DNA from: a virus
Taxonomy: Duplodnaviria; Heunggongvirae; Uroviricota; Caudoviricetes
Direction: 5' to 3' (one strand)
Length of the DNA: 41,351 nucleotides
IMG/VR virus record: IMGVR_UViG_2541047933_000011
Position 1 is the stretch's first letter. The number at the start of each line of letters is the position of its first letter. The translations under genes and the position numbers were made by a program. The notes under the pieces were generated by a model that did not search any database, was not told the origin of the DNA, and saw only the letters and a list, made by a program, of their open reading frames with translations. Shown here piece after piece: positions 532-26,429 of this stretch.

Positions 532-1071
532 ATGAAGAAAGTTTTTCTTTGCGCCATCTTAGCCTCCTTAAGCTATCCGGCTATCGCCTCATCATTGCAG
601 GATCAACTCTCGGCTGTCGCAGAAGCGGAACAGCAAGGTAAAAATGAAGAGCAAAGGCAGCATGACGAATGGGTCGCGGAGCGCAACAGGGAAATCCAGC
701 AAGAGAAGCAACGTCGCGCAAACGCCCAGGCCGCGGCTAATAAAAGAGCGGCAACGGCAGCAGCGAATAAGAAAGCTCGTCAGGATAAACTGGACGCCGA
801 AGCCACTGCGGACAAAAAACGCGATCAAAGTTATGAAGATGAGCTACGTAGCTTAGAGATTCAGAAACAAAAACTGGCGCTGGCGAAAGAAGAAGCCCGC
901 GTCAAGCGCGAAAACGAATTTATCGATCAGGAACTGAAGCACAAAGCTGCGCAAACCGATGTGGTGCAATCTGAAGCTGACGCAAACAGAAATATGACTG
1001 AAGGCGGTCGCGATCTGATGAAAAGCGTGGGTAAAGCAGAAGAGAATAAATCAGATAGCTGGTTTAACTAA
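532..1071 (+). CDS. secreted, highly charged coiled-coil protein (probable host flank)
   Basis: GGAGG RBS before ATG 532; N-terminal signal peptide; K/R/E/Q/A-rich body. Confidence 0.5.
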   Translation: MKKVFLCAILASLSYPAIASSLQDQLSAVAEAEQQGKNEEQRQHDEWVAERNREIQQEKQRRANAQAAANKRAATAAANKKARQDKLDAEATADKKRDQSYEDELRSLEIQKQKLALAKEEARVKRENEFIDQELKHKAAQTDVVQSEADANRNMTEGGRDLMKSVGKAEENKSDSWFN

Positions 1072-1116
1072 ACGATGTTAGTAACTTCAAACCTATAATT
1101 CTTTAGGATAAAAAAA

Positions 1117-1140
1117 CCCTCTGTAGTAACAGAGGGTTTT
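1117..1140. terminator. bidirectional rho-independent terminator
   Basis: A-run, perfect 8-bp stem CCCTCTGT/ACAGAGGG with 4-nt loop, then TTTT; lies between convergent host genes and the prophage lysis genes. Confidence 0.65.
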
Positions 1141-1289
1141 GTTCATTCATAGTGCAGGGTCAAATCATTCCCACTCAATTATTTACGACAATCATAACCA
1201 ATTGAGTGATAACATTTTTCCAAAGTTCAACTTTTCCCGTACCGTTTTATATACCGTCACCGGAAATCAGTGCCATGAAAAATACCATG

Positions 1290-1772
1290 CTATCTGGTCA
1301 GGGTGTCGTACTGTTTTTCGCAGACTCTTCCGGCTTCGGCTGCCCGGTCAGCATACTCTGCCAGTTGTCTGTTTCTCTCGAGAGATTTGCTGAGCACGTC
1401 GGCAAGCAAAACTCCGGTGTCTGCGGCTGACGACCCAGCGCCGACAATGGCGTTATACTGCCTGAGCTGCTCACGGATGGCAACGAGCTGTTGCTGCAAC
1501 CTGCCAGCGCGAGCGGCAGCATCAAGAGCATCGCTGCGCGCCTGATCGATCCTCTGCTGCGCTTCACGTTCATTGGTCGCTTTCTCCTGTTCGTAGTACT
1601 GACGAACTTTTTCTTCTTCGGCTTTGCGGTCTTCTTCCGCCTGCGCATACCCGGCATCGTACTGGCGACTGCCGTGTGCATTCCAGGCTACAACTCCTGA
1701 TATGACCAGAACAGCAAGCATCGCCATGATAACCAACTGTTTCCAGTATGCTTTTGCGAATGCCCAGATCAT
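1290..1772 (-). CDS. Rz-like i-spanin
   Basis: ATG at 1772 overlaps endolysin stop (ATGA); N-terminal TM helix then charged coiled-coil; last gene of lysis cassette. Confidence 0.6.
1298..1531 (-). CDS. Rz1-like o-spanin embedded in Rz in an alternate frame
   Basis: internal ATG (1531 or 1522) giving lipoprotein signal [12 protein letters not shown] inside the Rz gene; start uncertain. Confidence 0.45.
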   Translation of the reverse strand: MLLMLPLALAGCSNSSLPSVSSSGSITPLSALGRQPQTPEFCLPTCSANLSRETDNWQSMLTGQPKPEESAKNSTTP

Positions 1773-2398
1773 ACCGCCAGCACCTTACTGGCAGTGATGT
1801 ATCGCGCGCGCCGGTCATCAATGCCGTTCCGGCCACCATTGATAAGCAGAGTTACACGTGCAATATCTCCGGTATACTTCATGCAGCCTTTGCTGGCGAA
1901 GAACCACGCCGCGCTACGAGCCGCATATTCGTCCTGCGCCAGCAGTTCAGGGCTCTCCAGCAGGTCAACCTTCAGACCGTTTCCGCAATCACGATAGTTA
2001 TTCAAACCGGTAATCTGGATAAGTCCGCGCCCTCGGTAATTCCAGCCATCACCAGGGGCATTGTTCCCCATGCGTTTGCTGTACACCAGATTGGCAATCG
2101 CTCTCTGGCGCTCAGGTGGCAATGGTGGTTCGCCTGCGCGTCGCCCCAATGCGTTGGCCTGTCCCTGAGTGAGACGCCCAGCCCGAACAAAGTTAGCCAG
2201 TCCGCTGACGCTGTAGTTGAAATTCTCCTGCAACCGGGTGAAGCCTCCAGACTCATGCCCGACCTGAGCAATAAACATAGCCTGATCTTCTGGTTTGCTG
2301 ATACCAAACTCTTTCATCGCAGAAGTTATATGCGAGAACCAGCGTGCGGCCAGTGCCTCGCTGATACCAGCAGCTCGCTGGAATTGTTTAATCTCCAT
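1769..2398 (-). CDS. endolysin, glycoside hydrolase family 19-like
   Basis: ATG at 2398 with GAGG RBS; motif [10 protein letters not shown]...NFNYS typical of GH19-type phage lysozymes (recalled); the longer ORF to 2563 is an upstream extension. Confidence 0.75.
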
Positions 2399-2696
2399 GT
2401 TTAGACCTCGATACTTTGAAAATTTGAACGACGTTACCGCGCGTTTTAATAACCGCAGCAAGCATGACAGCGTTGATAATGACCTCGGATAAATCCACAG
2501 CCATTGGCGTACGTAACCAGATTGCATAGGCGACTCGAACAGGAATACTGGCCGCAGCAACAATCAGGAAATAAGCAAGCCATCCTCCCCACCTTCGGTG
2601 TTGAGAGCCGTTACGCCGGAATGTGACAACGCGAATTGCTATGCCAGTGCAAATAACTGCATTGGTGATAAGCAAAAAAAACTCATGCGTTACCAT
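2388..2696 (-). CDS. small multi-TM membrane protein in lysis cassette (second holin or antiholin candidate)
   Basis: ATG at 2696 overlapping stop of upstream holin gene; about 3 hydrophobic segments; overlaps endolysin start. Confidence 0.45.
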
Positions 2697-3087
2697 CGTC
2701 TTTTCTCCCCGGAATTAACTCGCGTGGATTATCGGAACGGTGATAGAGCCATATACCAATACGCACAGCGACAATTGCTGACACGAATGCGCCTGCAGAG
2801 AAAACAATCCCTTTTTCAAAAGAGTCCTGCGTGATGGTAGGGATCAGGCTGGCTATGCCGATAAGAATTGATGCTGCTGGTTTGTAAAAGAGAAGGCCGC
2901 AAAGAAAGCTGAGCATCGACAGGAGCACCCGGCGACGGATGGGGTACTCTACTGCAGAGGTAACAAAAATTACCGCCCCAGCCAAAGCCCCTAAAGCAAC
3001 CTCCGGAGGGACACCTGCAATAACTGCAGCAAGAGAACCAAAACTAAGCAACTGATTTAATTGCTCACTTGTTACTTGAGCAGACAT
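2683..3087 (-). CDS. putative holin (about 3 TM segments)
   Basis: ATG 3087 with AGGAG RBS; three hydrophobic helices; first gene of lysis cassette. Confidence 0.55.
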   Translation of the reverse strand: MSAQVTSEQLNQLLSFGSLAAVIAGVPPEVALGALAGAVIFVTSAVEYPIRRRVLLSMLSFLCGLLFYKPAASILIGIASLIPTITQDSFEKGIVFSAGAFVSAIVAVRIGIWLYHRSDNPRELIPGRKDDGNA

Positions 3088-3368
3088 ACTTTCTCCTGTT
3101 TACTATCTATAAGCCAGTCAATTATTGATGACTAAACCCGCATAGTAAACCATATATGAATCATTATTGTTCCATATCATATATCTCAATAAAAGTACTA
3201 ATGATTTTACAGAACGAGCCAGCAGAGTGGGGGCAGTTGTACAGGAACCATAGACTTAATTTTGTATTTAATAATGCTATGGTGTAATAAACCTGAACAT
3301 GTATTTAAAATACGTACTGATTCATGATAGAATTCAAAGATAACTTTTCACCAACTCCGTTTTTGATA

Positions 3369-3395
3369 CCCGCAATATTTTGCGGGCTTTTTTTT
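3369..3395. terminator. stem-loop with flanking A/T runs at 3' end of tail spike gene (possible terminator)
   Basis: CCCGCAA-tatt-TTGCGGG hairpin followed by T9 on plus strand and preceded by A-run on minus strand. Confidence 0.35.
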
Positions 3396-6300
3396 AACGT
3401 TCTTCCAGAGACTGAACCCGCTCTTTTATCTTATCCATTTCTCTGCGCTGCCATGCTGCCTCGATATAGAATAAGAGATCAGGTCTGACCCCCCATCTAG
3501 ATCCTGCTGGCGTTATTTCAACGCGCTCAATGATGTCTTCTATTACCATCACTGGATTATCATCCTCATCAACAATGATGCTCCCGTCATTATCAGTCAG
3601 CGGCATTTCCCTTTGGCCAGTAATGACGTCATCATATACTGCGGGATAATCGTCATAGCAAAGAAAGGCATAGCGGCATGTTGTGCTTTCTTCTTCCATG
3701 AGTCCGTGAGAAATAAGAACATCACGAAGTTGCTGCGCGATTACACCATGATGTATCCTCGCCCCTTCTTCCCCCTTTATAGCGACAGCGTTCAGCCATT
3801 TATAAGCGATATACCTGACGTCACCCCAGGCATCCAGCAATGCTTCGTCAGGAGAGACCGGCTCTGTCTTTAATGTTCCGTCACTGGTAACCACAGGATT
3901 GGAGCCAAGATAAACTGTCGAGAACCTGTTTCCCGGACCACCAAGAGCATTTACATTATCAAGATAAGGTTTAACATCTCCGTTCTCAAAAAGATGTTCG
4001 AGTGCGTTATATACCGCGCGACGTGGAGTACTGCTTCCGGAACCATGCAACGTTATCATTGCACCATCTGCTGAAGACGTTGTTTCACCGCCGCTAACGA
4101 TTAATCTCTGAGCGGTAACATCATCAGACGGTACTTTCTTCGCAATAATGGCGTAATTACCCTCAAGTTTGACTTCCGCGCGAACTTGTCCTGATGTACC
4201 TGCATGGACAGTCAGTGACTGGACGGCAACATCATCTGTGAAATCAACGGGTACAGGAACCGTCCTCACGCCTGACGTCGACATAAAAGTAGGAAGCGTT
4301 CTGTTAGGAGTGGCTCCGTAGACAAAATCCCTTGAAACAAATTCTTCCTGTTTAATTTTCACCCTGAAACAATACAAATCAGCCGGGTGACCATCGTGAA
4401 CATAAGGATATTTTCTGTTGTTATCCCCTATGCTCCATGGGTTTAGAAAGTCTTCCCCACCGAAAATGTAGTACAGCCAGTTGTCTTTGATACAAACTGA
4501 ACCAACACCAACCGCAGAGTTAACTATTCCGCCCTGATAAATCTGATCAGTAACATTAACCCACTCTACATTATCCAGACTCCACTCATTGACGTTAACT
4601 CTGGTCATAAATGTTCTTGGATAATTTCCTGCATAACGGTTATCAGGCTCTCCTCCTTCCCACTCACCAAATGCGCGCTCACTGCCAAAAATAATCAGCT
4701 CATCGCCAACTTTGGCAAAAGGAAGGTTTGAGTGATGAACATTATTTGGGAAGCGAAGAGAATTCCATGATGTACCTAAATCAGAGCTTCTGTGCAATGA
4801 ACTACCGGGTTGAGTACTTAATGTCCCCCTGGTCGTCAGATACAGAATGCCATCATAATATTTTACACATGGCTCAGATGCATTCGCCTCATATTCTGCA
4901 GGTATGCGTCTGCGAACAAAGCTACCAGGAGAACCGAAAGCATCAGAGAAATAGAGTATCCCAAGCTCGCGTGGACCAATATCACCATTATGGTAGCCAA
5001 CAGCAAAACTGTTATCGCTAATCGTCGCAAAACTGTGAATCTCAGTAACAGGAGTGCTTCCGTCAACAAAAGAAGGAATAGTTCCAAGACTGGTTTTTCT
5101 CCATGGTGACGAGTGAAATGATGTACCAAAACTCCAGTATCTACCCTCGTTATTCTGATCCACATCCTGGGTATTTTGCGTCGTAACTGTAAAAGTATTT
5201 TTATCAATAACAGTAGTCACCGTCATATTCCCGGTAACACCTGTAACACCAGAGTTTGAGAAGTTGACAAAATCACCAGCAAATAATCCGTGATCAGTAA
5301 TGCGAATATAAGCGACTTGCTGATTTGCTGCTTTCGTTATACCACCATAAACGCGAAGGCTGCGACTCATTGGGCGATCCCACAACTCTGCAACCTGCAG
5401 TTTATTTCCGCTCACGGTCCGCGTCTCAATTACAGCAAAAAGGCGATTTCTGACAACCCCCATACTCATGCAGTGATAGTTAACTGTGGGATAGTTTTCA
5501 TGTAAATCTGTAAGCCATTCCGGCGTTGTCCAGGTCTTCCCGTCATCTCCTGAGCGAACCCATGCAACATGGAGGTTATTTACACCATGGCGGTCTCCAG
5601 CCATAAAAGGCGCATAGATGACATTGTCATATACAAACGTTTTATCCTGCGTCCAGGCGTTGTACCACGGTGTATCTGTAATTTTAAATAACTCTCCCTG
5701 GATAAAATCTTCAGAAGCATAAAAAAGAGGCTGGCCCGGTATTCTCTCAAATAAAAAACGAGCATTTTTAAATCGACTGACATCCGGAAGAGTTGATACT
5801 TTAAAAGTAAGCCCTAATCCGTCAATTTTATAACCTGGAGATGAGGCTTCAAGGCACGCGCTTATTGCAGTGGAATCGTCATTTATACCATCACCAACAG
5901 CTCCAAAATCTTTGGGGCTAATAGCATCACGCATTTTATCCTGGAACGTTCGGTACACAGCCCCAGAACCATACTGAATAAACCAACCAAAACCACCAAC
6001 AACCCCGGCGATTGCAGCATCGACATAATTACGCATTGAGCGATTATTTACAGCGTCCTGCTCAAATGATGGATCTGCAAGGTTAGAAATTTTGTTTTGC
6101 TTTGCATCGTAATATTTTGCAAGCAAAGATGGTTTCATCAATGCACGTCTGAACCACCCAAAACATTGCTGGATCAGCATCGTCAGGTAGTCAAAGGCAT
6201 CTTCATGCACTTCGGGGAAAAATTTTCCCTGATTGCGAAGGTCTGTCTCCTGCACCACATCAAGCACACGATCTATCGTAATTCGCCATCCAGCAGCAAG

Positions 6301-6513
6301 CGGCGACGGAAGAACAACAGAACCGCCACTATAAGTGCCCGCCCCAGTTACCGTATAACCGGTATCCAGTACTAGTTCTGTTACGTTACCGTTAAGGTCA
6401 GACACCTGAACAACCAGGTCGGATTTTTTGAAAATACGGAAGGTATACGGAAATGATGTCGTAACGCCGTTACCAGTGTATTCGTTGTGGTCAACTTCGG
6501 TTGAGACCGTCAT
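3394..6513 (-). CDS. tail spike: T7 gp17-like N-terminal adaptor, beta-helix/sialidase-like Asp-box region, C-terminal S74-type intramolecular chaperone domain
   Basis: 1039 aa; GGAG RBS; N-terminus YTGNGVTTSFPYTF; DFGAVGDGINDDSTAI pectate-lyase-like motif; Asp-boxes SGDDGKTW and SSDLGTSW; C-terminal GVIAQQL region. Confidence 0.8.
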   Translation of the reverse strand: MTVSTEVDHNEYTGNGVTTSFPYTFRIFKKSDLVVQVSDLNGNVTELVLDTGYTVTGAGTYSGGSVVLPSPLAAGWRITIDRVLDVVQETDLRNQGKFFPEVHEDAFDYLTMLIQQCFGWFRRALMKPSLLAKYYDAKQNKISNLADPSFEQDAVNNRSMRNYVDAAIAGVVGGFGWFIQYGSGAVYRTFQDKMRDAISPKDFGAVGDGINDDSTAISACLEASSPGYKIDGLGLTFKVSTLPDVSRFKNARFLFERIPGQPLFYASEDFIQGELFKITDTPWYNAWTQDKTFVYDNVIYAPFMAGDRHGVNNLHVAWVRSGDDGKTWTTPEWLTDLHENYPTVNYHCMSMGVVRNRLFAVIETRTVSGNKLQVAELWDRPMSRSLRVYGGITKAANQQVAYIRITDHGLFAGDFVNFSNSGVTGVTGNMTVTTVIDKNTFTVTTQNTQDVDQNNEGRYWSFGTSFHSSPWRKTSLGTIPSFVDGSTPVTEIHSFATISDNSFAVGYHNGDIGPRELGILYFSDAFGSPGSFVRRRIPAEYEANASEPCVKYYDGILYLTTRGTLSTQPGSSLHRSSDLGTSWNSLRFPNNVHHSNLPFAKVGDELIIFGSERAFGEWEGGEPDNRYAGNYPRTFMTRVNVNEWSLDNVEWVNVTDQIYQGGIVNSAVGVGSVCIKDNWLYYIFGGEDFLNPWSIGDNNRKYPYVHDGHPADLYCFRVKIKQEEFVSRDFVYGATPNRTLPTFMSTSGVRTVPVPVDFTDDVAVQSLTVHAGTSGQVRAEVKLEGNYAIIAKKVPSDDVTAQRLIVSGGETTSSADGAMITLHGSGSSTPRRAVYNALEHLFENGDVKPYLDNVNALGGPGNRFSTVYLGSNPVVTSDGTLKTEPVSPDEALLDAWGDVRYIAYKWLNAVAIKGEEGARIHHGVIAQQLRDVLISHGLMEEESTTCRYAFLCYDDYPAVYDDVITGQREMPLTDNDGSIIVDEDDNPVMVIEDIIERVEITPAGSRWGVRPDLLFYIEAAWQRREMDKIKERVQSLEER

Positions 6514-6616
6514 GTTAAATCTCCAGATAGTCGCAGCACCCGTTGCGCCGCATATCTGGTTATTCTATTACCTGAAAAACCACATATGGATAGAAAGACT
6601 GTGAATACGAATAGAT

Positions 6617-6669: not shown

Positions 6670-6689
6670 TACTGTATAAATATACAGTT
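6670..6689. promoter_or_regulatory. LexA (SOS) box
   Basis: TACTGTATAAATATACAGTT: 18 of 20 matches to TACTGTATATATATACAGTA with CTGT-N8-ACAG intact; 20 bp upstream of ATG 6709. Confidence 0.7.
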
Positions 6690-6708: not shown

Positions 6709-6966
6709 ATGCAGCAGTATCACTATCCACTGGAAGACGGATTTACCGAAAGGATTCACACGCCGGGAGGCGTCAGATCACTGGTGGAGGGATCGCACTT
6801 GATGAAATTACTCCGGGATCTCGATAAGGATGGATTTAATGTCGATGGCCCACTTGCCGAACTGACTGCACTGATTAACTACGTCACCAGCTCACAGATG
6901 TCTATGCAGGATCTGCAAACACATCTCGACTATTGTGCCGAACAATTACGAAAACAAACCACATAA
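6709..6966 (+). CDS. small protein homologous to the C-terminal domain of the Bro-N antirepressor (candidate SOS-inducible antirepressor)
   Basis: 85 aa; GGAG RBS 8 nt before ATG; about 36 percent identity over about 72 aa to the C-terminus of the 8112..8804 product (hand alignment). Confidence 0.6.
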   Translation: MQQYHYPLEDGFTERIHTPGGVRSLVEGSHLMKLLRDLDKDGFNVDGPLAELTALINYVTSSQMSMQDLQTHLDYCAEQLRKQTT

Positions 6967-6971
6967 AGAAA

Positions 6972-6989
6972 AGGCCGCTCTAGCGGCCT
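6972..6989. terminator. bidirectional stem-loop between convergent genes
   Basis: AGGCCGC-tcta-GCGGCCT hairpin overlapping stop of 6988..7716. Confidence 0.45.
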
Positions 6990-7716
6990 ATCGTTTCGCT
7001 TTGTGCTCGTCCCAGCACGTTTTGCACCATGCCATTAAGCCGTCCGCATTTTGATTATTAGGGTAAAAGCTAGTTCGTTTTCTGCGGACATTACAAATTG
7101 GGCACCACTTCATATGGCGTGTATTCTTTGGGCCATCGAGACACCTTGCACACCACTTAGTCAATCCATCTGGATTTTTTGACGATTTCCTGAATTTTTC
7201 ATATGGAAGGTTTATTCTGCATCGCAAGCACTGCTTGCTACCACTTGAAACTCTGTTAGCTGATTCTTCTTTTGGCGGCGATACAGAAGGTATTCTTGCT
7301 GGCTCTGATACTGCCTGAGGTGCTTTTTTAGATGACTGAGACGATATGTCATCACCAGGGAATCTTCCATGATATGCCGGACGCGTTGACACTCCGGGTG
7401 GAAGCTCAGCTGTAAACGGCTTTGGCTGAATCAGTTGCCTCTCTTTTGCTAACTCCTGCTGTTTATAATATGTCTGGATTACCGCGCTATCATAAGCAGG
7501 AGGTACGGAAATATTAGGCGCATTATCTCCCGTTTTTTGAAACTGAGTGGAGGTGTGTTCTATCACCTGTGTACGATTAATCGTTATCTCCCCATCTTCA
7601 GTCTTTATCGTTTTGTTATGATTAACGACCGTACGATCAGAGATCTTAGTCTTGTTCTGGTTGATAACGTAAATAATCACCGCAACCACACCAACAACTA
7701 CCCAGAAAACTTCCAT
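6988..7716 (-). CDS. membrane-anchored protein with C-terminal tandem zinc-ribbon (four CxxC pairs)
   Basis: 242 aa; strong GAGGAAAGG RBS; N-terminal TM helix; C-terminus CLRC...WCARC...WCPIC...WCKTC. Confidence 0.6.
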   Translation of the reverse strand: MEVFWVVVGVVAVIIYVINQNKTKISDRTVVNHNKTIKTEDGEITINRTQVIEHTSTQFQKTGDNAPNISVPPAYDSAVIQTYYKQQELAKERQLIQPKPFTAELPPGVSTRPAYHGRFPGDDISSQSSKKAPQAVSEPARIPSVSPPKEESANRVSSGSKQCLRCRINLPYEKFRKSSKNPDGLTKWCARCLDGPKNTRHMKWCPICNVRRKRTSFYPNNQNADGLMAWCKTCWDEHKAKR

Positions 7717-7735
7717 TGCCTTTCCTCACAATAAC

Positions 7736-7752
7736 ATTACCTTAAAGGTAAT
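7736..7752. promoter_or_regulatory. operator-like palindrome ATTACC-ttaaa-GGTAAT (perfect)
   Basis: exact inverted repeat 20 bp upstream of ATG 7716 (minus strand). Confidence 0.6.
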
Positions 7753-7800
7753 ATCTTGCTTTCAGGTGATCAAGCGTTAAACGCAATCAACCAAATACGG

Positions 7801-7830
7801 TTGATTTTAATATTTCTTCGCGTTTATCAT
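7801..7830 (+). promoter_or_regulatory. candidate sigma70 promoter (TTGATT-18-TATCAT) overlapped by operator
   Basis: -35 at 7801-7806, -10 at 7825-7830; operator 7829..7845 overlaps -10 and start region. Confidence 0.4.
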
Positions 7831-7845
7831 TACCTTTGCGGTAAA
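7829..7845. promoter_or_regulatory. operator-like palindrome ATTACC-tttgc-GGTAAa
   Basis: core TTACC-N5-GGTAA exact. Confidence 0.55.
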
Positions 7846-8111
7846 TTTACATCGCACTCCTCTTGTGCCATAGTAATCGGGCACTGGCAAAATCCAGTGC
7901 CGGGATTGGTCTCCCGGATTACTACAGAGGCACATATGCCGCATAAGCGGTTTTTTTATGTGTAAAGCGCACCTATTCTATGGTGGGCTGTGTGGGGGCA
8001 CCGAAAGGTGCGCCGGGTTCCTTTGTAGCCGGTAAGACCAACTCTGCACAGTTCACCACCATCTGATTGGTCTCAGCGGTGGTGATTAACCTAACTACAA
8101 AGGTGATCGCC
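7846..8111 (+). other. long structured non-coding leader upstream of Bro-N gene (possible attenuator or small RNA)
   Basis: about 265 nt without a credible ORF; hairpins at 7872-7897 and 7996-8011 (GAAA loop); CCGC-ataa-GCGG plus T7 at 7938-7957. Confidence 0.3.
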
Positions 8112-8804
8112 ATGAATACCAAACCTTCCATCTTTTCCTTTGAGTCATCCTGCCAGATCCGTATGTTCATGATTGACGGAGAACCTTGGTTTGTCACCAA
8201 AGATGTGTGCAATGCTTTGAATATTGATGTTACACAAGCGAGAAAACTTGATAAAAAAGGCTGGAACAAAAAGGGGCTGTATTCAATACAGACCCCTGGT
8301 GGAATACAAGAACTATCCATCGTTTCAGAATCAGGTCTCTACATCCTTATTCTGCGTTGCAAAGAGGCAATGACTGAGGGAACGAGAGCATTCAGATTTC
8401 TTGAATGGGTTACAGGTGAGGTTCTTCCTCAGATCCGCCGCACCGGAAGTTACATTAAAAACTCGCTCCCGCAGGAAGAACGCATAAAGATGGTTGCCGA
8501 CCAGGTAGCCAACGCCACAGCATCAGCAGTGATGCAGGCAATGAAGATAGAGAACAAAACCTACAGTGCCCCACTGAAGCCCGGCTACCGCAGCCTGATT
8601 CATTCTCCGTCTGGTGTTCTCGGCCTGACGGAGAACTCATTGCTTATGAATCTGCTAAACCAGTTACAGGAAGACGGGCACGACGTATCGGGCGCGGCGG
8701 CGGAGCTGACCACCATGTTCTGCTACATCGTCGGTGTGAGCAAATGCCTGCGTGATATCCAGACCCACGCGGAGTACATCAACGACAAGGCAGGGTTCTT
8801 CTGA
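8112..8804 (+). CDS. Bro-N domain antirepressor-like protein
   Basis: ATG 8112 with AGGTGA RBS; N-terminal FMIDGEPWFVTKDVCNALNI Bro-N motif; C-terminal domain paralogous to 6709..6966. Confidence 0.75.
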   Translation: MNTKPSIFSFESSCQIRMFMIDGEPWFVTKDVCNALNIDVTQARKLDKKGWNKKGLYSIQTPGGIQELSIVSESGLYILILRCKEAMTEGTRAFRFLEWVTGEVLPQIRRTGSYIKNSLPQEERIKMVADQVANATASAVMQAMKIENKTYSAPLKPGYRSLIHSPSGVLGLTENSLLMNLLNQLQEDGHDVSGAAAELTTMFCYIVGVSKCLRDIQTHAEYINDKAGFF

Positions 8805-8875
8805 CGGGCGGTGGCACAGGGACGTGCCTTTAAATAATTCTGTACAGATTGCAGACTGGGGGTGAATAGAGTACT

Positions 8876-8892
8876 ATTACCCCAAAGGTAAA
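8876..8892. promoter_or_regulatory. operator-like palindrome ATTACC-ccaaa-GGTAAa
   Basis: core exact; 26 bp upstream of ATG 8918. Confidence 0.55.
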
Positions 8893-8917
8893 CCGAGAGT
8901 TTACATGAGGGGGAAAC

Positions 8918-9106
8918 ATGGAAATCAACATCATTACATTGCTGAAGGCCATTATTGGCGGAGCGGGCTTAGGCTTTGCCCTACCAGGCGGATTATCTTT
9001 CCTGCTTCCTGCTTTTACTGTTACAGCTGGGATAGCCTATGCATTTGCTGTGGCTGGTGCTGTTGCACTCCCTGCTATCTATGCCGCAAAGAAGTTAGCC
9101 AACTAA
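8918..9106 (+). CDS. small hydrophobic Gly/Ala-zipper peptide (bacteriocin-like or membrane toxin-like)
   Basis: 62 aa; GAGGGGG RBS; N-terminal 15 aa ends in GG (MEINIITLLKAIIGG) followed by 47-aa hydrophobic glycine-rich segment. Confidence 0.5.
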   Translation: MEINIITLLKAIIGGAGLGFALPGGLSFLLPAFTVTAGIAYAFAVAGAVALPAIYAAKKLAN

Positions 9107-9107
9107 A

Positions 9108-9440
9108 ATGCCTGATTTATCTTGGCTTGCGCCCAGAGATGCACAGCAATTGACAAGGTTTTATTTCATACTGTGCATTGCTTATCTTGCTGTTCATCTG
9201 ATATGGGATGCCGTTTGCAAAGATACGCCTCCTTTTTCTTTGGATAAGTTGCAATACAAGATGAATGAGGTTTATTCATCATCTACTTTTGCAACCAGCG
9301 CATTCTTCATTGTTATTCTGTTCGATATGAAGAATCCACTGAGAACTTCAGATGCTTTCATATTCCCATTAATTATTGCTGCTCTAACTGGCTTTATGAT
9401 CTCATTATCAGCAATAGTGCCAAAGAAAGTAAATAACTGA
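9108..9440 (+). CDS. 3-TM membrane protein translationally coupled to the hydrophobic peptide (immunity or partner candidate)
   Basis: ATG 1 nt after upstream stop; three predicted TM helices; AT-rich. Confidence 0.5.
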   Translation: MPDLSWLAPRDAQQLTRFYFILCIAYLAVHLIWDAVCKDTPPFSLDKLQYKMNEVYSSSTFATSAFFIVILFDMKNPLRTSDAFIFPLIIAALTGFMISLSAIVPKKVNN

Positions 9441-9443
9441 ATA

Positions 9444-9466
9444 AGCCCGCGTTGCGGGCTTTTTTA
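9444..9466 (+). terminator. rho-independent terminator
   Basis: AGCCCGC-gttg-CGGGCT followed by TTTTT. Confidence 0.6.
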
Positions 9467-9537
9467 TGGACGAAACAAAAGTCAGTGCTACACTCATTGA
9501 CGCCACATCGAGGTGGCTTATAGATGGAAATGTCACA

Positions 9538-9699
9538 ATGAAAAAAGCATTTGCTGCACTGTTCGTTTTGTTGTCTCTGGTAGCTTCAACTCAGGCCTTT
9601 GCCGGTCGTTGTCAGCACGACAGCGATACTGCCGCTGACGGCTCCCGCTGCGGTGGGCGTTCTGCGGATTCCCGCCCGGGCGGCGGTGGCATTCGTTAA
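9538..9699 (+). CDS. small secreted Cys/Gly-containing peptide
   Basis: internal ATG gives signal peptide MKKAFAALFVLLSLVASTQAFA then about 31-aa mature peptide with 2 Cys; start and reality uncertain. Confidence 0.35.
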   Translation: MKKAFAALFVLLSLVASTQAFAGRCQHDSDTAADGSRCGGRSADSRPGGGGIR

Positions 9700-9704
9700 A
9701 AACA

Positions 9705-9727
9705 AGGCCGCGAAAGCGGCCTGTTTG
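9705..9727. terminator. stem-loop between convergent genes
   Basis: AGGCCGC-gaaa-GCGGCCT hairpin. Confidence 0.45.
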
Positions 9728-9728
9728 A

Positions 9729-10580
9729 TCACTGTGCAGTTTTCGCTGATCGATTTTCAGCTCTAAATTCAAGAACCGTTTCAATATTTCTTTCCTTCAG
9801 CATATCAATAACATTTTTATTCATTTGACTATCACTGGTTAATAACTGGTAAACGTTGCTTCTCTCTTTATCAGAATTTTCTTTAACAGCTGCTTTGCAT
9901 GCCAAATGCTTATTGAAATTTTCTACATCGCTAGTACAGGAATTTACGGCTGCTGATGAAATATCAGACGCTGAAGAAACACCATCATCCAAACGTTTTA
10001 TAGCATTTTCTATACATGAGTTAAGGGAATAAACGACAACTGAGCGATACCCTTCAGACGCACACCATTCTAAATTTCTTGAAGGATCGAGTGGTTTTAC
10101 TTCGCTGGATTGAATTAACTTGTCAAAAACTGACTTATATTCAATCTGTTTTTTATCTATAGCCCATACTTCAGTAGCTGATTTATAATTCCCCGTATGC
10201 CTATTAACATCAAATCCATGTTTTATAAGCAAATCTGCCCATGAAAGATTTATTGATTCATTGTTATGAGGCCATTTTCCTGTCAGAACCGCCCCCATAG
10301 ACCCCATATATCCGCCATATGATGGTATAGCACCATGGCTCAGTAACTTCTCAGCAACCACAGGGCAATTAATTACATAAGAGGCGTAAAGCCCATTCCA
10401 TAAAGCCCCTCTATAGTAATCGCCACGATTAGGTTCTTTTAAGTCGATAGCCTTTGATAATTGTTCACACGTTTTGCATGCATCAAAGTTATCCTTATTG
10501 CATTGCAATGAACTGGCGGCTGTAGGATTTACAGAGACTATTGAAAGCACTATGCCAAAAAACAAATTTATTTTTTTCAT
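9729..10580 (-). CDS. secreted protein with ankyrin-like repeats
   Basis: 283 aa; signal peptide MKKINLFFGIVLSIVSVNPTAASS; ankyrin-like segments (AEKLLSHGA; ADLLIKHGFDVNRHTG); AT-rich; starts 1 nt after stop of upstream virion gene. Confidence 0.55.
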   Translation of the reverse strand: MKKINLFFGIVLSIVSVNPTAASSLQCNKDNFDACKTCEQLSKAIDLKEPNRGDYYRGALWNGLYASYVINCPVVAEKLLSHGAIPSYGGYMGSMGAVLTGKWPHNNESINLSWADLLIKHGFDVNRHTGNYKSATEVWAIDKKQIEYKSVFDKLIQSSEVKPLDPSRNLEWCASEGYRSVVVYSLNSCIENAIKRLDDGVSSASDISSAAVNSCTSDVENFNKHLACKAAVKENSDKERSNVYQLLTSDSQMNKNVIDMLKERNIETVLEFRAENRSAKTAQ

Positions 10581-10581
10581 C

Positions 10582-13500
10582 CTATTTCATCTGCTCTTCA
10601 ACTTTATTTAGTAATGGTGATATCGCCCACAGATTCTGAAAAGGTAGCATTTTACGGACAGCGTGGGTTTGCTGGCTGTCAAATTCTCCGTTAAGTACAC
10701 CATTTGCAACCGTCGCGGCATCACCGCCAAGATCAAAGGTAGGACCAAGTAAAGCACCAATAGCATTACGACTCTGAAACCTTGATACCGGAGGCGCACC
10801 AAACATCGCGCCAAGACCAAACCTACCGCCGCTTATGTTCTCAACGGTATTCAGCGGCTCAGAGAGCCAGCCAAGCATTCCGCCCCGGTCGATCCCCTCT
10901 TTCACAAGGTTATTCCAGCTGTAGTCGATATCGCGACCGCTTAACTTCTGTTTCATCATATAGACCATTGAGCCAAGCGCAATCGTGCCAAGCGCACCAA
11001 GATAGAATGAAGCATCGCCCTGCTGGATACCAGATACCAACACCCTGTTATGCTGTGCGAAGATAAACGTTTTGAACTGCGTGATCATCTTCCAGCCTTC
11101 TTTACTAAAAAACAGCGGTGTATCACCTACGCCAGGCGTTACAATCACTGAGTCTACATCTTTCAGCACTGCAGACTGGAAAATCTCTCTAGCGAAACGG
11201 TCATCCCACAGATGACTATGCCCGGTTAACAGCCCGTCCATATCCTCTCCGTGCTTCCCGAATTGCTCCCCGATTCGGCGCAGAACATCTTCATTGATGC
11301 CGACCTGTGCCATCTTCCGCATTTCACTTTTGGCGAGCGTGCCACCAGCAGAAACCTGGCGAGCCGCGTCAAGTATCCTCGACTGCACTATCATCCCGGA
11401 CCATGATTTAAGTGCGCTGTTCCACTGATTCATCAGCGTCCAGTTACCGAATTTCTGCGTCATCCAGTTCAGGCCTCGCTCAGCGGCGCTTCTCCGGCTA
11501 TAGGGGTCAGTAAGATCCGCTATAGCCTTTGTACGCGTAGACAGGACATAATCAAGCCCAACGGCCATTTCTCGCAAATCCCTGGTTGCAATTTTCACTG
11601 AGTCCATATTTTTAAGCATGCTTACCATTGGTCCGAGAGATTTTCTCAGGCCATGCTGCATCATCGGTCGCATCAGATCAGTTGCAGCGGAGACGGTCAT
11701 TCCACCAAGCAAACGGAGGAAGTTAATATTCCTAGCAACTCGCCCGGCACGAACAAAGAAACTGCGTGGATCTTGAGGTGCGCCGTAAGTACCAAGCAGT
11801 CGGTCACGCATAGCCGTAATATCCCTAATATCAGCCTCCCGTTGCTTCTCAAGAGCTGCACGTCGTTTAGGTGTTTTAGCCTCTTTTATTAGCCGGGTAT
11901 ATTCCTCACTAACCTGACGGATTTGCTCCCCCATATCTTTACGGCCAAACTGCGCAGTCAGCTCAATTTCTGGTGCCACCTGCCGGAGATAACTTTCCAT
12001 GATGTAGTTAACATCTGATTCAAGAAAATCTTCTATACGCTCATCAGGAATAAGCAGCGTTCGGCTTTTAGTGAAACCAGCCCGACCAACGAGTCTCTCT
12101 GGGATAATATCGGCTGGTACAAGCCCGGAAGGTGCGCCTATTATTTTATTCACGATCTCGTCAGCAGCGTCCTCTGCTTCCTCTCGGGATAGAGGCTCCA
12201 TCTGCTTCAGTGCTCGCTCGCGGCTTGCATTCAGCCTTGTGGTTGAATTTGCCCGTTTTTGCAGTCGGCGAAGCTCAGAACGATATTTCCGTGGATTATC
12301 CAGCAACTCCATATGGCGCTGATAGACAGGAAGCTCACTCTTTGCCTGCGCTATATCATCAAGGCGTGTTTTAAGGTCAGAGCTTTCTTTCATCATTCTT
12401 GCCTGAAGTTTTTCTGATGAAGTCTCGGCCAACTCTTTTTCTATTCTTGTAAGACGCGCCTGTGTGTCAGTCTCCTGAGATATAAGCTTATTTCGTTTAT
12501 CCAGTTCTTCCATGAGTAGAATTTTTTTACCAGACCATTTCTCCGCTTCAGCGATTTCACTAGCGAGAGCATCAGCGCGCGGTGCCGATTCCTCTGCAGT
12601 TTTTAGCAATGAATTTATCCTTTCAATTCGCTGACCTGCTTTGTCAGCACCTTTGGCACTAATCCCTTGTATCCAGTTGGCAATTCGCCCTCTGAATTCA
12701 GTGCGGTCGGAAAGTATCTTATCGAACTTATAAATGCGGGGAAGATAACTTTTCGCCGTCACGACATCGATATCCTCAGGAAGGATCCCCAGTTCCTGCA
12801 TACGGGCTTTTGTGGTCTCGAAAATGGGGCGGATTCTGGCGGCTGCTTGTGAAACCTCAGGAATATCACTCTGATCACCACGGCGCATAGCCATGCCAAC
12901 AGCTTCATTGAAATCAATAAAGCTCATCCTCTTCACGCCGCGGGCGCTGACAGATTTGCTGTACTGCTGGTAAGCATCACGAGTGGCTTCCATCTGCTTA
13001 TAAAGCATGGCGTCGTATTGCTTAATCTTAGTCTCGACTGCCGTAAACGTAGCCAACCCCTCATCATTTTTGGCGAAGAAATAGTTATTTTCGGCAAGCT
13101 GCTGGTTAATCTGACGGGAGACAAGAGATGGTGATTGCGCCAAGCGGCCAGCAGGAGTGACACTCAACGTTTTGTTAGCAAGTCCAAGTCCAGCGAGCTG
13201 TTCCTGATCGAGTGTGGTATTGAAAACCTGAGCTGCACCAATGCTTTGAGGAGAATCCATACCTCGCAAATGATTACCTACTGAGTTAACCACTGCCTCG
13301 CGCGCGCTAGGTCCAGCAAGTAGCTGTGCACCAGCACCAAGGATCCCACCAACGAGAGCATCAACAACAACGTTCGATACGCTCTCCATCGGTGAGCGAG
13401 CTTCCTGAGTGGCCTGCAATGCGGCCTCTGAAGCAACACTGCCAGCAGCATTGGCTAAAGCAAAACGTCCGGCTGTTTCTGCAATACGACCGCCACGAAC

Positions 13501-13971
13501 GACAGCGCCGAACGGAATAAACATAGAAATCGCATTGAATGGATCTGCTAATCTCATTGCTACAGAAGAGACTGTACCAGCAAATCCCAAGCCTGAATTG
13601 TATTCCATGTCAGCTCTCTGCTGATCGATTCGATGTTTAATTGCCATTGTTTCTTCAGGCGAACCGGAGTTGATAAACGAATCTGCAAAATCTTCATAGC
13701 CTTTAATATCTGCTGCATCGTTATCAAATGGGTTATATCCTTCAATCCTGTCAAACTGACTGAAAGGAGCACTGGCAATAAAGCTACCCAGCGTGTTATC
13801 TATACGAAATGCTGCTTGTCTAGACCTTTGAACGCGTTGATCACTGGTAAATGGGTTCACAGCAGAAAGCAAAGAAGGTGTTTCCATATAGAAATTACTG
13901 TCATCAGGTGCTGCTATTTGCTGAATATCCTCGCCAAGCAACTCTTTAGGATCCTGTTCATATATCGGCAT
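10582..13971 (-). CDS. large virion/internal (ejection-type) protein
   Basis: 1129 aa; start overlaps upstream stop (TAATG); position in structural operon. Confidence 0.7.
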   Translation of the reverse strand: MPIYEQDPKELLGEDIQQIAAPDDSNFYMETPSLLSAVNPFTSDQRVQRSRQAAFRIDNTLGSFIASAPFSQFDRIEGYNPFDNDAADIKGYEDFADSFINSGSPEETMAIKHRIDQQRADMEYNSGLGFAGTVSSVAMRLADPFNAISMFIPFGAVVRGGRIAETAGRFALANAAGSVASEAALQATQEARSPMESVSNVVVDALVGGILGAGAQLLAGPSAREAVVNSVGNHLRGMDSPQSIGAAQVFNTTLDQEQLAGLGLANKTLSVTPAGRLAQSPSLVSRQINQQLAENNYFFAKNDEGLATFTAVETKIKQYDAMLYKQMEATRDAYQQYSKSVSARGVKRMSFIDFNEAVGMAMRRGDQSDIPEVSQAAARIRPIFETTKARMQELGILPEDIDVVTAKSYLPRIYKFDKILSDRTEFRGRIANWIQGISAKGADKAGQRIERINSLLKTAEESAPRADALASEIAEAEKWSGKKILLMEELDKRNKLISQETDTQARLTRIEKELAETSSEKLQARMMKESSDLKTRLDDIAQAKSELPVYQRHMELLDNPRKYRSELRRLQKRANSTTRLNASRERALKQMEPLSREEAEDAADEIVNKIIGAPSGLVPADIIPERLVGRAGFTKSRTLLIPDERIEDFLESDVNYIMESYLRQVAPEIELTAQFGRKDMGEQIRQVSEEYTRLIKEAKTPKRRAALEKQREADIRDITAMRDRLLGTYGAPQDPRSFFVRAGRVARNINFLRLLGGMTVSAATDLMRPMMQHGLRKSLGPMVSMLKNMDSVKIATRDLREMAVGLDYVLSTRTKAIADLTDPYSRRSAAERGLNWMTQKFGNWTLMNQWNSALKSWSGMIVQSRILDAARQVSAGGTLAKSEMRKMAQVGINEDVLRRIGEQFGKHGEDMDGLLTGHSHLWDDRFAREIFQSAVLKDVDSVIVTPGVGDTPLFFSKEGWKMITQFKTFIFAQHNRVLVSGIQQGDASFYLGALGTIALGSMVYMMKQKLSGRDIDYSWNNLVKEGIDRGGMLGWLSEPLNTVENISGGRFGLGAMFGAPPVSRFQSRNAIGALLGPTFDLGGDAATVANGVLNGEFDSQQTHAVRKMLPFQNLWAISPLLNKVEEQMK

Positions 13972-16718: not shown

Positions 16719-17284
16719 CAGTAACCTCCTATTTTGAATCGGGAGTCAGAATTCATAAAACCTGAGTTAGATAACATTGGCGTGTTTCCTTGCTTACTAA
16801 TCGGATTGATACTTCCGCCACCCAACTTATATGCACCGTACGCTTTTAGTGGTGCCGTTAACAAAGTGCTGGTCATCGATGATTTAGCAGCCGACTGAGC
16901 AGCAGCCCCCTGTGCCTGAGCATTCATTCCCTGAACCTGATACCCATATGCCTCACGCTGAGCGTTATTCACTGTCGTTAACGCATCAAGAGTGCCGAAC
17001 TGAGCATTATCCGCAAAAACGTCAAGAGCTGTTCCGCTACTTAATTCCGCACCGGTAGCCCCCATAGTGGCCGCCGCAGTGCCTGAGCGTTGACGCATTT
17101 CACGACGACGCTGATCCGCTTCAATATTCCCACGATTGATTGAATCCTGTGCCTGGGCTTCAGCAATCTCAGCATTCCGATCAGCTACGGCTGACTGGTA
17201 TCTTGCCTGCTTGCTCTGGCTGTACATTGATGCGGCTGTGGATGCCACTGTGACTGCAACCAAAGCGATGGCTGGGTTACACAT
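16718..17284 (-). CDS. virion internal protein (Ala/Gln-rich)
   Basis: 188 aa; start overlaps upstream stop. Confidence 0.6.
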   Translation of the reverse strand: MCNPAIALVAVTVASTAASMYSQSKQARYQSAVADRNAEIAEAQAQDSINRGNIEADQRRREMRQRSGTAAATMGATGAELSSGTALDVFADNAQFGTLDALTTVNNAQREAYGYQVQGMNAQAQGAAAQSAAKSSMTSTLLTAPLKAYGAYKLGGGSINPISKQGNTPMLSNSGFMNSDSRFKIGGY

Positions 17285-26352: not shown

Positions 26353-26429
26353 GTGGCATTAGCTCAGTTGGACAGAGCAACCGCCTTCTAAGCGGTTGGT
26401 CGCAGGTTCGAATCCTGCATGCCACGCCA
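26353..26429 (+). tRNA. tRNA-Arg (anticodon UCU), phage-encoded
   Basis: 77 nt; acceptor stem GTGGCAT/ATGCCAC; D-arm GCTCAGTTGGACAGAGC; anticodon stem ACCGC/GCGGT with loop CTTCTAA; T-arm GCAGGTTCGAATCCTGC; 3' GCCA. Confidence 0.85.

Follow-up and report, generated by a model that had tools for sequence, protein, structure and literature searches.

An endosialidase tailspike gene in an epsilon15-like prophage at the guaA site of K1-capsulated Escherichia coli

Described endosialidase and epsilon15-type tailspikes

Phages of the SP6-, T7- and P22-like lineages have become K1-specific through the acquisition of an endosialidase cassette. The best matched structures come from endoNF, the tailspike of the lytic T7-like coliphage K1F (1v0e, 3gvl, 3gw6), and from the endosialidase of phage phi92 (4hiz), which is reportedly specific for alpha-2,9 or mixed alpha-2,8/2,9 polysialic acid. 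Among temperate phages, the P22-like Lederbergvirus CUS-3 encodes SiaK1 (CP000711, ABQ88383.1), a protein whose record carries the annotation 'endo-alpha-sialidase activity [Evidence IDA] PMID 16689790'. The phage vB_EcoP_ZX5 (MW722083) was described as a viable temperate Uetakevirus isolated on an O87:H52:K1 host, with plaque formation on a K1 indicator reported after induction by mitomycin C or spontaneously, and its ORF7 (QTH80017.1) was reported with its K1 host and with a three-domain architecture matching that analysed here (PMC9782041).

Other spikes of the epsilon15 type, such as those of the Salmonella phages VB_ST_E15 and SPC32H and of the E. coli O157 typing phage 9, have receptor-binding parts that form a right-handed beta-helix aimed at the O-antigen and not at polysialic acid. 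In Escherichia phage EC.W1-9 (PP445227), the spike is an 'eliminase' (WYA78252.1) that continues, after a DFGAxGDGxxDD motif, into a 624-aa pectate-lyase-type beta-helix (PF12708) and has neither a propeller nor an S74 chaperone.

The tailspike gene and its prophage

The window, that is the whole stretch of 41,351 nucleotides analysed here (IMG/VR record IMGVR_UViG_2541047933_000011), is a Uetakevirus prophage at the guaA attachment site of the E. coli chromosome. All coordinates refer to the window, and the features described lie on its minus strand unless stated otherwise. The prophage end adjoining yfgI carries the attachment core ATTGAGTGGGAATGATT (1163..1179), the same sequence as the published attP core of ZX5, phiV10 and epsilon15 (PMC9782041). 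Wherever the window and ZX5 align, they are mostly 93–98 % identical. The two prophages are of the same type and share the att core, and in both the spike gene has the antirepressor region on one side and the holin genes on the other. The window's prophage differs in its ejection-protein module and in having an additional upstream ORF of 242 aa. In CUS-3, neuO with its AAGACTC repeats lies beside the spike gene, whereas a search for such a contingency locus beside the spike found no AAGACTC repeats in the window. As a side observation, strain 2022E04-002 is 100 % identical to positions 9000–17000 of the window, but there are 16 nucleotide differences in the spike gene, and a second integrase, not yfgI, adjoins the prophage; the window therefore derives from a different strain.

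The tailspike gene (3394..6513) is one intact ORF of 1039 codons plus stop. Its ATG start is backed by homologues whose alignments begin at residue 1, and a ribosome-binding site, GGAG (6521..6524), can be read directly in the sequence 7 nt 5′ of the ATG. Eight nucleotides past the stop codon, a terminator scan revealed a GC-rich hairpin (3369..3386, not assigned to a strand) that was scored as a terminator on the plus strand and that is preceded by an A-run on the strand of the gene.

The gene is intact and codes for an endosialidase tailspike known from earlier work, carried here by an epsilon15-like (Uetakevirus) prophage of K1-capsulated E. coli. Its sequence is 99.3–99.6 % identical at the nucleotide level to ZX5 ORF7 and to RefSeq genes annotated as 'endosialidase catalytic beta-propeller domain-containing protein'; ZX5 ORF7 is the same gene over its full length (99.3 % nucleotide identity), with five amino acid differences (K29R, A74T, S368R, I991M and V1033I). 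The allelic differences among spike copies are scattered and mostly synonymous, and nothing in them points to a special event. Some match to the spike gene occurs in 614 genomes, and 72 of the 5426 complete E. coli genomes contain it in full length; several of these carriers are named or known K1 strains, e.g., APEC O1, IHE3034 and O1/O2:K1:H7 APEC strains. An endosialidase tailspike is ordinary for K1-capsulated E. coli.

An intact endosialidase gene could also reside in a defective or silent prophage, in which case the protein would never be built into virions and would have no present role in host range. One might cite in favour of this that only a single att core and a single end of the prophage fall within the window and that its ejection-protein module is unlike that of ZX5, a phage of proven viability. 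However, no module that a Uetakevirus should have is missing or interrupted (integrase, repressor-region homology, terminase, portal, capsid, tail, ejection proteins, spike and lysis genes). As for the alternative ejection module, it is both conserved and widespread, with at least 80 % of it covered in 112 genomes, IHE3034 among them. The spike ORF, moreover, differs from other alleles by 4–6 amino acids without any frameshift. We consider a defective prophage unlikely.

The endosialidase region

Residues 205–876 make up a complete endosialidase, comprising N-terminal extension, propeller, barrel insert and stalk, as seen by Pfam and by a search of PDB sequences. The N-terminal extension (PF12218, End_N_terminal; aa 205–271, 5701..5901) is matched at 6e-32 and is 57 % identical to endoNF. 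It is followed by the six-bladed catalytic beta-propeller (PF12217, End_beta_propel; aa 272–721, 4351..5700), for which the Pfam model is matched end to end (1–367 of 367) at 1.4e-233. Inserted in the propeller is a beta-barrel (PF12195, End_beta_barrel; aa 383–465, 5119..5367; 3e-46) with 67 % identity to endoNF, and the region closes with the stalk or tail-spike domain (PF12219, End_tail_spike; aa 722–876, 3886..4350; 8e-78). The propeller contains two canonical Asp-boxes of the pattern S-x-D-x-G-x-T-W, SGDDGKTW (aa 321–328, 5530..5553) and SSDLGTSW (aa 576–583, 4765..4788), which agrees with the Asp-box sialidase-like region noticed in a preliminary description made from the sequence. Among PDB sequences, endoNF (1v0e/3gvl) was retrieved at E = 0 over aa 205–876, with 66 % identity over 665 aligned residues, and the phi92 endosialidase at 1.7e-271. 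The domain, Asp-box, structure and fold matches of the tailspike are not due to chance.

Asp-boxes are not specific to sialidases, and the preliminary description had accordingly left room for a non-sialidase propeller or a K5-lyase-type depolymerase. For a glycosidase or lyase of that kind one could further invoke a weak match to the pectate-lyase-like family PF12708 at aa 201–221 (E 0.035). This match scores 14.3 bits, far below the cut-off of 27, and spans just the DFGAxGDGxxDD motif, which is shared with the EC.W1-9 spike; the lyase-type domain itself belongs to the latter, which has only the adaptor in common with the present protein. In addition, the matches to all four endosialidase-specific Pfam domains range from 6e-32 to 1e-233, and none but endosialidases rank among the best structures, so that the best matches to non-sialidase propellers which would have refuted the preliminary description did not occur. 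For this gene a K5 lyase is thereby ruled out, and a non-sialidase enzyme in general is exceedingly improbable.

The catalytic and sialic-acid-coordinating residues of endoNF were taken from a published list (PMC12632334). All five main positions are identical, H309, R515, E547, R562 and R613 of the tailspike corresponding to H350, R549, E581, R596 and R647 of endoNF, and Q330, D331, H527, S528, K585 and N699 from the same list are also conserved. In the stalk, R837 and S848 of endoNF are conserved while Q853 is replaced by methionine (M819), a change also seen in CUS-3. A second departure from endoNF is a seven-residue insertion, FVDGSTP, at aa 482–488. We take R837, S848 and Q853 to be part of the polysialic acid-binding site of the endoNF stalk.

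These two departures, together with the strong likeness to the phi92 enzyme, could be read as signs that the spike has the endosialidase fold but another specificity (for alpha-2,9, mixed alpha-2,8/2,9 or O-acetylated K1 polysialic acid), or even that it is a catalytically dead, binding-only protein. Yet both the Q853 replacement and the insertion are common to CUS-3 SiaK1, an assay-annotated endo-alpha-sialidase, the catalytic residues are all conserved, the alignment score is higher to endoNF (1048 bits) than to phi92 (907 bits), and the named or known carrier strains are K1. A change in specificity or a loss of catalysis is accordingly regarded as very unlikely. The preliminary description had held that the substrate was not established. 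This caveat is largely lifted by the 99.5 % nucleotide identity of the catalytic and chaperone parts to CUS-3 siaK1 with its direct-assay annotation and by the five conserved catalytic residues, which together make alpha-2,8-polysialic acid by far the most likely substrate as judged from sequence comparison.

The C-terminal chaperone

Directly 3′ of the stalk lies an intramolecular chaperone of the Peptidase_S74 type (aa 877–1039, 3397..3885). Pfam matches PF13884 at aa 877–937 (1.7e-10), and the endoNF chaperone domain 3gw6 is matched across the whole C-terminus at 9e-92 in the search of PDB sequences, so that the S74-type domain proposed earlier is confirmed. S877 aligns with position 911 of endoNF, which is an alanine in the 3gw6 construct, and K882 aligns with K916; the domain thus has the conserved serine and lysine at the predicted cleavage site. 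From this alignment, self-cleavage is predicted between T876 and S877, S911 and K916 being the cleavage residues of endoNF.

The N-terminal adaptor

The first approximately 190 residues (5944..6513) form a tail-attachment adaptor of the epsilon15/Uetakevirus type, with a beta-sandwich at aa ~8–87 followed by a helix at aa 100–124. Over aa 1–165 it is 67–72 % identical to the spikes of VB_ST_E15, SPC32H and O157 typing phage 9, with which the prophage shares its genus and genome layout. At the sequence level, its relation to the N-terminal domain of T7 gp17 (PF03906) is below threshold: 16.5 bits against a cut-off of 25.2, E 0.007, with the best stretch confined to aa 135–161. Direct BLASTP against T7 gp17 returned a 22-aa motif only (E 0.047), and a profile of 34 adaptor homologues searched against PDB sequences did not retrieve T7 gp17, its matches being Dpo31/Dpo36 of Carin1 and several podophage fibres. 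Membership in PF03906 at the sequence level was therefore rejected, and likeness at the level of the fold alone was retained.

The AlphaFold model of aa 1–210 is confident for aa ~8–87 only. With this model, Foldseek ranked N-terminal tail-binding domains of podophage fibres or spikes at all of the first 22 places, including T7 gp17 (7ey9_a, E 1e-4; 7boz_a, E 6.9e-4) and 9jz0_b (rmsd 2.4 Å over 82 columns). The adaptor is accordingly identified, on homology and modelled fold, as an epsilon15/Uetakevirus tailspike adaptor that is a distant structural relative of the T7 gp17 N-terminus. The T7-type adaptor of the preliminary description therefore stands for the fold and not for the Pfam family, while the three-module architecture of endosialidase tailspikes that it had recognised is borne out by Pfam, by the PDB sequence search and by the adaptor fold match. 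The same prophage encodes a T7-type virion module, with a portal (PF12236, 3e-187), a T7_gp14 protein (PF24072, 8e-8) and a gp16-like internal virion protein (phrog_342).

In sum, the protein shares with endoNF the plan of T7-type adaptor, endosialidase and chaperone, the last of these predicted to cleave itself, and the alignment holds for both Asp-boxes, for each of the five catalytic residues and for the 911/916 positions. It differs in that its adaptor belongs to another sequence family, and the phage is temperate whereas K1F is lytic.

Mosaic junctions

Nucleotides 1–570 of the gene are mostly 87–100 % identical, per 30-nt window, to the spike gene of EC.W1-9; at the protein level the two adaptors are ~97 % identical over aa 1–~195, and neighbouring genes are shared as well. 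The identity profile then reveals a junction segment with the DFGAVGDGINDD motif (aa 191–232, 5818..5943), which is a close match to neither EC.W1-9 nor CUS-3. From nucleotide 699 to 3091 of the gene (3423..5815), the sequence is 99.5 % identical to siaK1 of CUS-3, with 13 differences in 2393 nt, and the propeller, barrel, stalk and chaperone are essentially those of SiaK1 (95 % amino acid identity over 847 aligned residues). The first ~190 amino acids, in contrast, are unrelated, CUS-3 having a P22-type head-binding domain there, and the last ~10 amino acids differ. CUS-3 is a Lederbergvirus and the prophage of the window a Uetakevirus; prophages of both kinds reside in the same K1 chromosomes in IHE3034, APEC O18, EC69, N1 and N54, and because of this co-residence the cassette may have moved between them.

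We lean slightly towards a recent mosaic origin of the tailspike gene, from three parts or more: an adaptor of the epsilon15 type, shared with the lyase-carrying sister phage EC.W1-9; a short divergent segment with the conserved DFGAxGDGxxDD motif; and a CUS-3-like endosialidase-chaperone cassette of 2.4 kb. This cassette may have passed from one resident prophage to another through recombination or gene conversion. If this is true, the epsilon15-like phages would be a further lineage turned K1-specific via an endosialidase cassette. As a small, clean case, the map of the junctions illustrates how unrelated temperate phages with a common host swap tailspike modules.

Proposed function and significance

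With a probability of roughly 93 %, the product of the gene is the tailspike by which a temperate epsilon15-like podovirus (Uetakevirus) at the guaA site destroys its receptor; the spike would be a trimer with a self-cleaving chaperone and T7-type docking that cleaves the K1 capsule and restricts the host range to K1. In this scheme, which we infer from the relatives of each domain, the polypeptide would fold as a homotrimer, with the chaperone (aa 877–1039) nucleating trimerisation and folding of the stalk. The chaperone would then excise itself between T876 and S877 by means of the putative Ser877/Lys882 dyad, giving a mature spike of 876 aa, and the adaptor, with its T7 gp17-type beta-sandwich and helix, would dock the trimer on a T7-like tail hub. 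Barrel and stalk would hold the alpha-2,8-polysialic acid of the K1 capsule while the propeller, through E547, R562, R613, H309 and R515, would cut it endolytically. Such cleavage would allow the virion to tunnel through the capsule to the outer membrane, and the dependence on the K1 capsule would limit the host range to K1-type capsulated strains.

The tailspike is already known: in its core it is essentially the enzyme of CUS-3, and the complete gene has been published in ZX5 and annotated in RefSeq. It brings no new mechanism or biology, and the sole addition to what is known is the fine map of the mosaic junctions. Endosialidases are nonetheless useful reagents and candidate anti-K1 therapeutics. 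For the prophage itself, the analysis assigns a probable receptor in the polysialic-acid capsule (K1) of E. coli that cause neonatal meningitis, urinary-tract infections or disease in birds.

A known endosialidase tailspike

The tailspike gene (window 3394..6513, minus strand) is one uninterrupted reading frame of 1039 codons, with GGAG 7 bases upstream of its ATG. This start codon is right since homologues can be aligned from residue 1, M1, T2, V3, S4 and T5 being nearly invariant. The G+C content of the gene (42–45 %) is lower than that of most of the prophage (about 50 %). Pfam places End_N_terminal at aa 205–271 (6e-32), End_beta_propel at aa 272–721 (1.4e-233, full model length), End_beta_barrel inside the propeller at aa 383–465 (3e-46), End_tail_spike at aa 722–876 (8e-78) and Peptidase_S74 at aa 877–937 (1.7e-10); two canonical Asp-boxes lie at aa 321–328 (SGDDGKTW) and aa 576–583 (SSDLGTSW). 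These results confirm the coordinates 3394–6513, the Asp-boxes and the S74-type chaperone domain of the preliminary description.

The gene, its architecture and the phage are already published and annotated, and the finding is a rediscovery. Escherichia phage vB_EcoP_ZX5 (MW722083, genus Uetakevirus) carries the gene as ORF7, with 99.3 % DNA identity over its whole length, and two unannotated phage fragments match equally well. ORF7 has been described as a T7-like tail-fibre domain at the N-terminus, an endosialidase in the centre and an endosialidase chaperone at the C-terminus, and the isolation host of ZX5, strain YO1, is O87:H52:K1 (PMC9782041). The siaK1 gene of the P22-like prophage CUS-3, for whose endo-alpha-sialidase activity the database record gives a direct assay as evidence, is 99.5 % identical to nt 699–3091 of the gene, counted from the ATG. 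Full-length copies, labelled ‘endosialidase catalytic beta-propeller domain-containing protein’ in RefSeq, occur in 72 of 5426 complete E. coli genomes. The carriers include several strains whose K1 type is in their name or otherwise known, among them APEC O1, IHE3034, APEC strains of types O1:K1:H7 and O2:K1:H7, and isolates from cerebrospinal fluid. The allele in the window differs from those of ZX5, APEC O1, FDAARGOS_1301 and 2022E04-002 by 12–21 scattered nt and 4–6 aa, which, judged from the sequences, is ordinary allelic variation.

Catalytic residues, chaperone and substrate

Among PDB sequences, the crystal constructs 1v0e and 3gvl of endoNF, the endosialidase tailspike of phage K1F, match aa 205–876 at E = 0 (437 of 665 aligned residues identical, 66 %), and the endosialidase of phage phi92 (4hiz) reaches 1.7e-271. 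In a deep mutational scan of the K1F spike (PMC12632334), H350, R549, E581, R596 and R647 are listed as the residues most important for catalysis. Their counterparts here, H309, R515, E547, R562 and R613, are all identical, as are the second-shell residues Q330, D331, H527, S528, K585 and N699 (endoNF numbering). Three stalk residues of endoNF are taken here to belong to its binding site; R837 and S848 are unchanged and Q853 is replaced by Met, as it is in CUS-3.

For the C-terminus, the match is to the crystal structure 3gw6 of the endoNF chaperone domain (9e-92), presumably an S911A mutant. Because the stalk/chaperone boundary NPVVT|SDGTLKTEP aligns with NPIVT|ANGERKTEP of this construct, the predicted cleavage site falls between T876 and S877; S877 and K882 are assumed, from the roles of their endoNF counterparts, to form the Ser-Lys dyad of this site. 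The endoNF matches and the identical catalytic residues support the initial interpretation as an endosialidase tailspike. Alpha-2,8-polysialic acid is almost certainly the substrate, a point that had been left open.

The tail-attachment adaptor

No Pfam model passes threshold over aa 1–204. The N-terminal tail-attachment module (adaptor, aa 1 to about 190) had been called T7-type, but PF03906, the T7 tail fibre N-terminal domain, reaches 16.5 bits with a cut-off of 25.2, most of it from aa 135–161. The sole BLASTP match to T7 gp17 is the motif YYDAKQNKISNLADPSFEQDAV versus HLDARGRRIVNLANAVDDRDAV at matching positions, and a profile built from 34 adaptor homologues and run on PDB sequences misses gp17. 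The AlphaFold model comprises a confident beta-sandwich (aa ~8–87, pLDDT ~90) followed by a helix (aa 100–124), and a Foldseek search of the PDB gives as its best 22 matches only the N-terminal domains by which podophage fibres or spikes are bound to the tail. Among them are Carin1 (8ck1_B, 7.6e-11), T7 gp17 (7ey9_a, 1e-4; 7boz_a, 6.9e-4; 9jz0_b, rmsd 2.4 Å over 82 columns), PhiM1, LME-1, Kp7, Kp9, P-SCSP1u, HRP29 and E1004.

At the sequence level the adaptor belongs to the epsilon15-type spike family, with 67–72 % identity over aa 1–165 to the spikes of Salmonella phages VB_ST_E15 and SPC32H and of E. coli O157 typing phage 9. The virion module is T7-like in its relevant parts, namely a PF12236 portal (3e-187), a T7 gp14-family protein and a gp16-like internal virion protein. 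Because of the Foldseek matches, the spike identities and these virion parts, ‘T7-type’ is correct for the fold and as an analogy of function, though not as Pfam membership, and ‘Epsilon15/Uetakevirus adaptor’ is the precise family name.

The prophage and its variable modules

Judged by the APEC O1 annotation, the window opens with host yfgH (1–516) and yfgI (532–1071). The 17-bp core ATTGAGTGGGAATGATT follows at 1163–1179; the ZX5 study reports this sequence as the attachment core (attP/attB) that ZX5, phiV10 and epsilon15 use at the guaA 3' end (PMC9782041). The spanin, endolysin and two holins (1290–3087, minus strand) are separated from the spike stop codon by an AT-rich non-coding spacer of 306 bp (3088–3393), within which lie several pairs of promoter-like hexamers and one GC-rich hairpin (3369–3386). 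After the spike and the antirepressor/moron region come genes for ejection proteins, tail, capsid, portal and terminase, followed by those for replication and regulation. The window ends exactly on the start codon of the 416-aa integrase (40101–41351); since it runs from host DNA to this codon, a single prophage junction is visible, the guaA-side one lying just beyond the end. A tRNA-Arg (anticodon TCT; 26353–26429, plus strand) lies inside the prophage between the terminase and portal regions, on the other strand from the structural genes; the APEC O1 prophage has the same tRNA annotated. In strains 2022E04-002 and FDAARGOS_1301, another tyrosine integrase replaces yfgI after the spanin (NZ_CM132301.1 9658–10866; NZ_CP070111.1 9542–10789), which suggests tandem prophages at the guaA site.

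Where ZX5 is alignable, identity is mostly 93–98 %; the antirepressor/moron region (about 6970–9730) aligns in patches only and 9729–16800 not at all. A perfect LexA-box-like palindrome, CTGTATAAATATACAG (6672–6687), precedes by 22 nt a small ORF that diverges from the spike gene (6709–6966, plus strand; ATG at 6709, 85 aa). The small protein shares 42 % identity (E 7e-16) with the C-terminal part of the BRO-N antirepressor (8067–8804, plus strand) and could be a small antirepressor under SOS control, of the coliphage 186 Tum or Gifsy type; its ZX5 homologue is annotated as hypothetical. A 242-aa ORF (6988–7716, minus strand; phrog_6762) with a hydrophobic N-terminal segment, a Cys-rich C-terminus with repeated CxxC motifs and weak Stc1, endonuclease VII and Lar-like matches is followed by a terminator-like hairpin (6972–6989). 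Present in FDAARGOS_1301 and 2022E04-002 (WP_001525322.1) and absent from ZX5 and APEC O1, it looks like a moron. The ejection module (9729–16718, minus strand) comprises three ORFs of 283, 1129 and 915 aa, including two large ejection/internal virion proteins with gp16-like and transglycosylase-type PHROG matches. These ORFs have no megablast match in ZX5 or the APEC O1 prophage, the flanks being 97–98 % identical, and IHE3034, APEC O18 and 2022E04-002 carry the module at 98.9–100 %; this is a whole-module swap within one phage genus.

A mosaic spike gene

A 30-nt identity profile divides the spike gene into four segments. Nucleotides 1–570 are mostly 87–100 % identical to the spike of the sister phage EC.W1-9, which beyond the common adaptor instead carries a 624-aa pectate-lyase-type ‘eliminase’ (PF12708). 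Nucleotides 571–695 are close to neither EC.W1-9 nor CUS-3, the CUS-3-identical block extends from ~695–699 to ~3080–3091, and the last ~30 nt diverge again. The second segment encodes KDFGAVGDGINDD, a motif common to endosialidase N-terminal extensions and pectate-lyase-type spikes, and weak PF12708 and Sf6-spike matches fall exactly on it; it is a plausible recombination joint.

CUS-3 and Uetakevirus spikes co-occur in single chromosomes, including those of IHE3034, APEC O18, EC69, N1, N54 and ST95-32. In several genomes the two endosialidase spikes, one in a CUS-3-type (P22-like) and one in a Uetakevirus prophage, lie ~170 kb apart with near-identical catalytic cassettes, as in K1 strain IHE3034 (NC_017628.1 2717363–2718053 and 2884245–2887364); further examples are NZ_CP006830, NZ_CM128670, NZ_CM165903 and NZ_CM165885. 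Because both spikes reside in the same chromosomes, there is opportunity for exchange of the endosialidase-plus-chaperone cassette between the prophages, a possible transfer whose direction and mechanism we infer.
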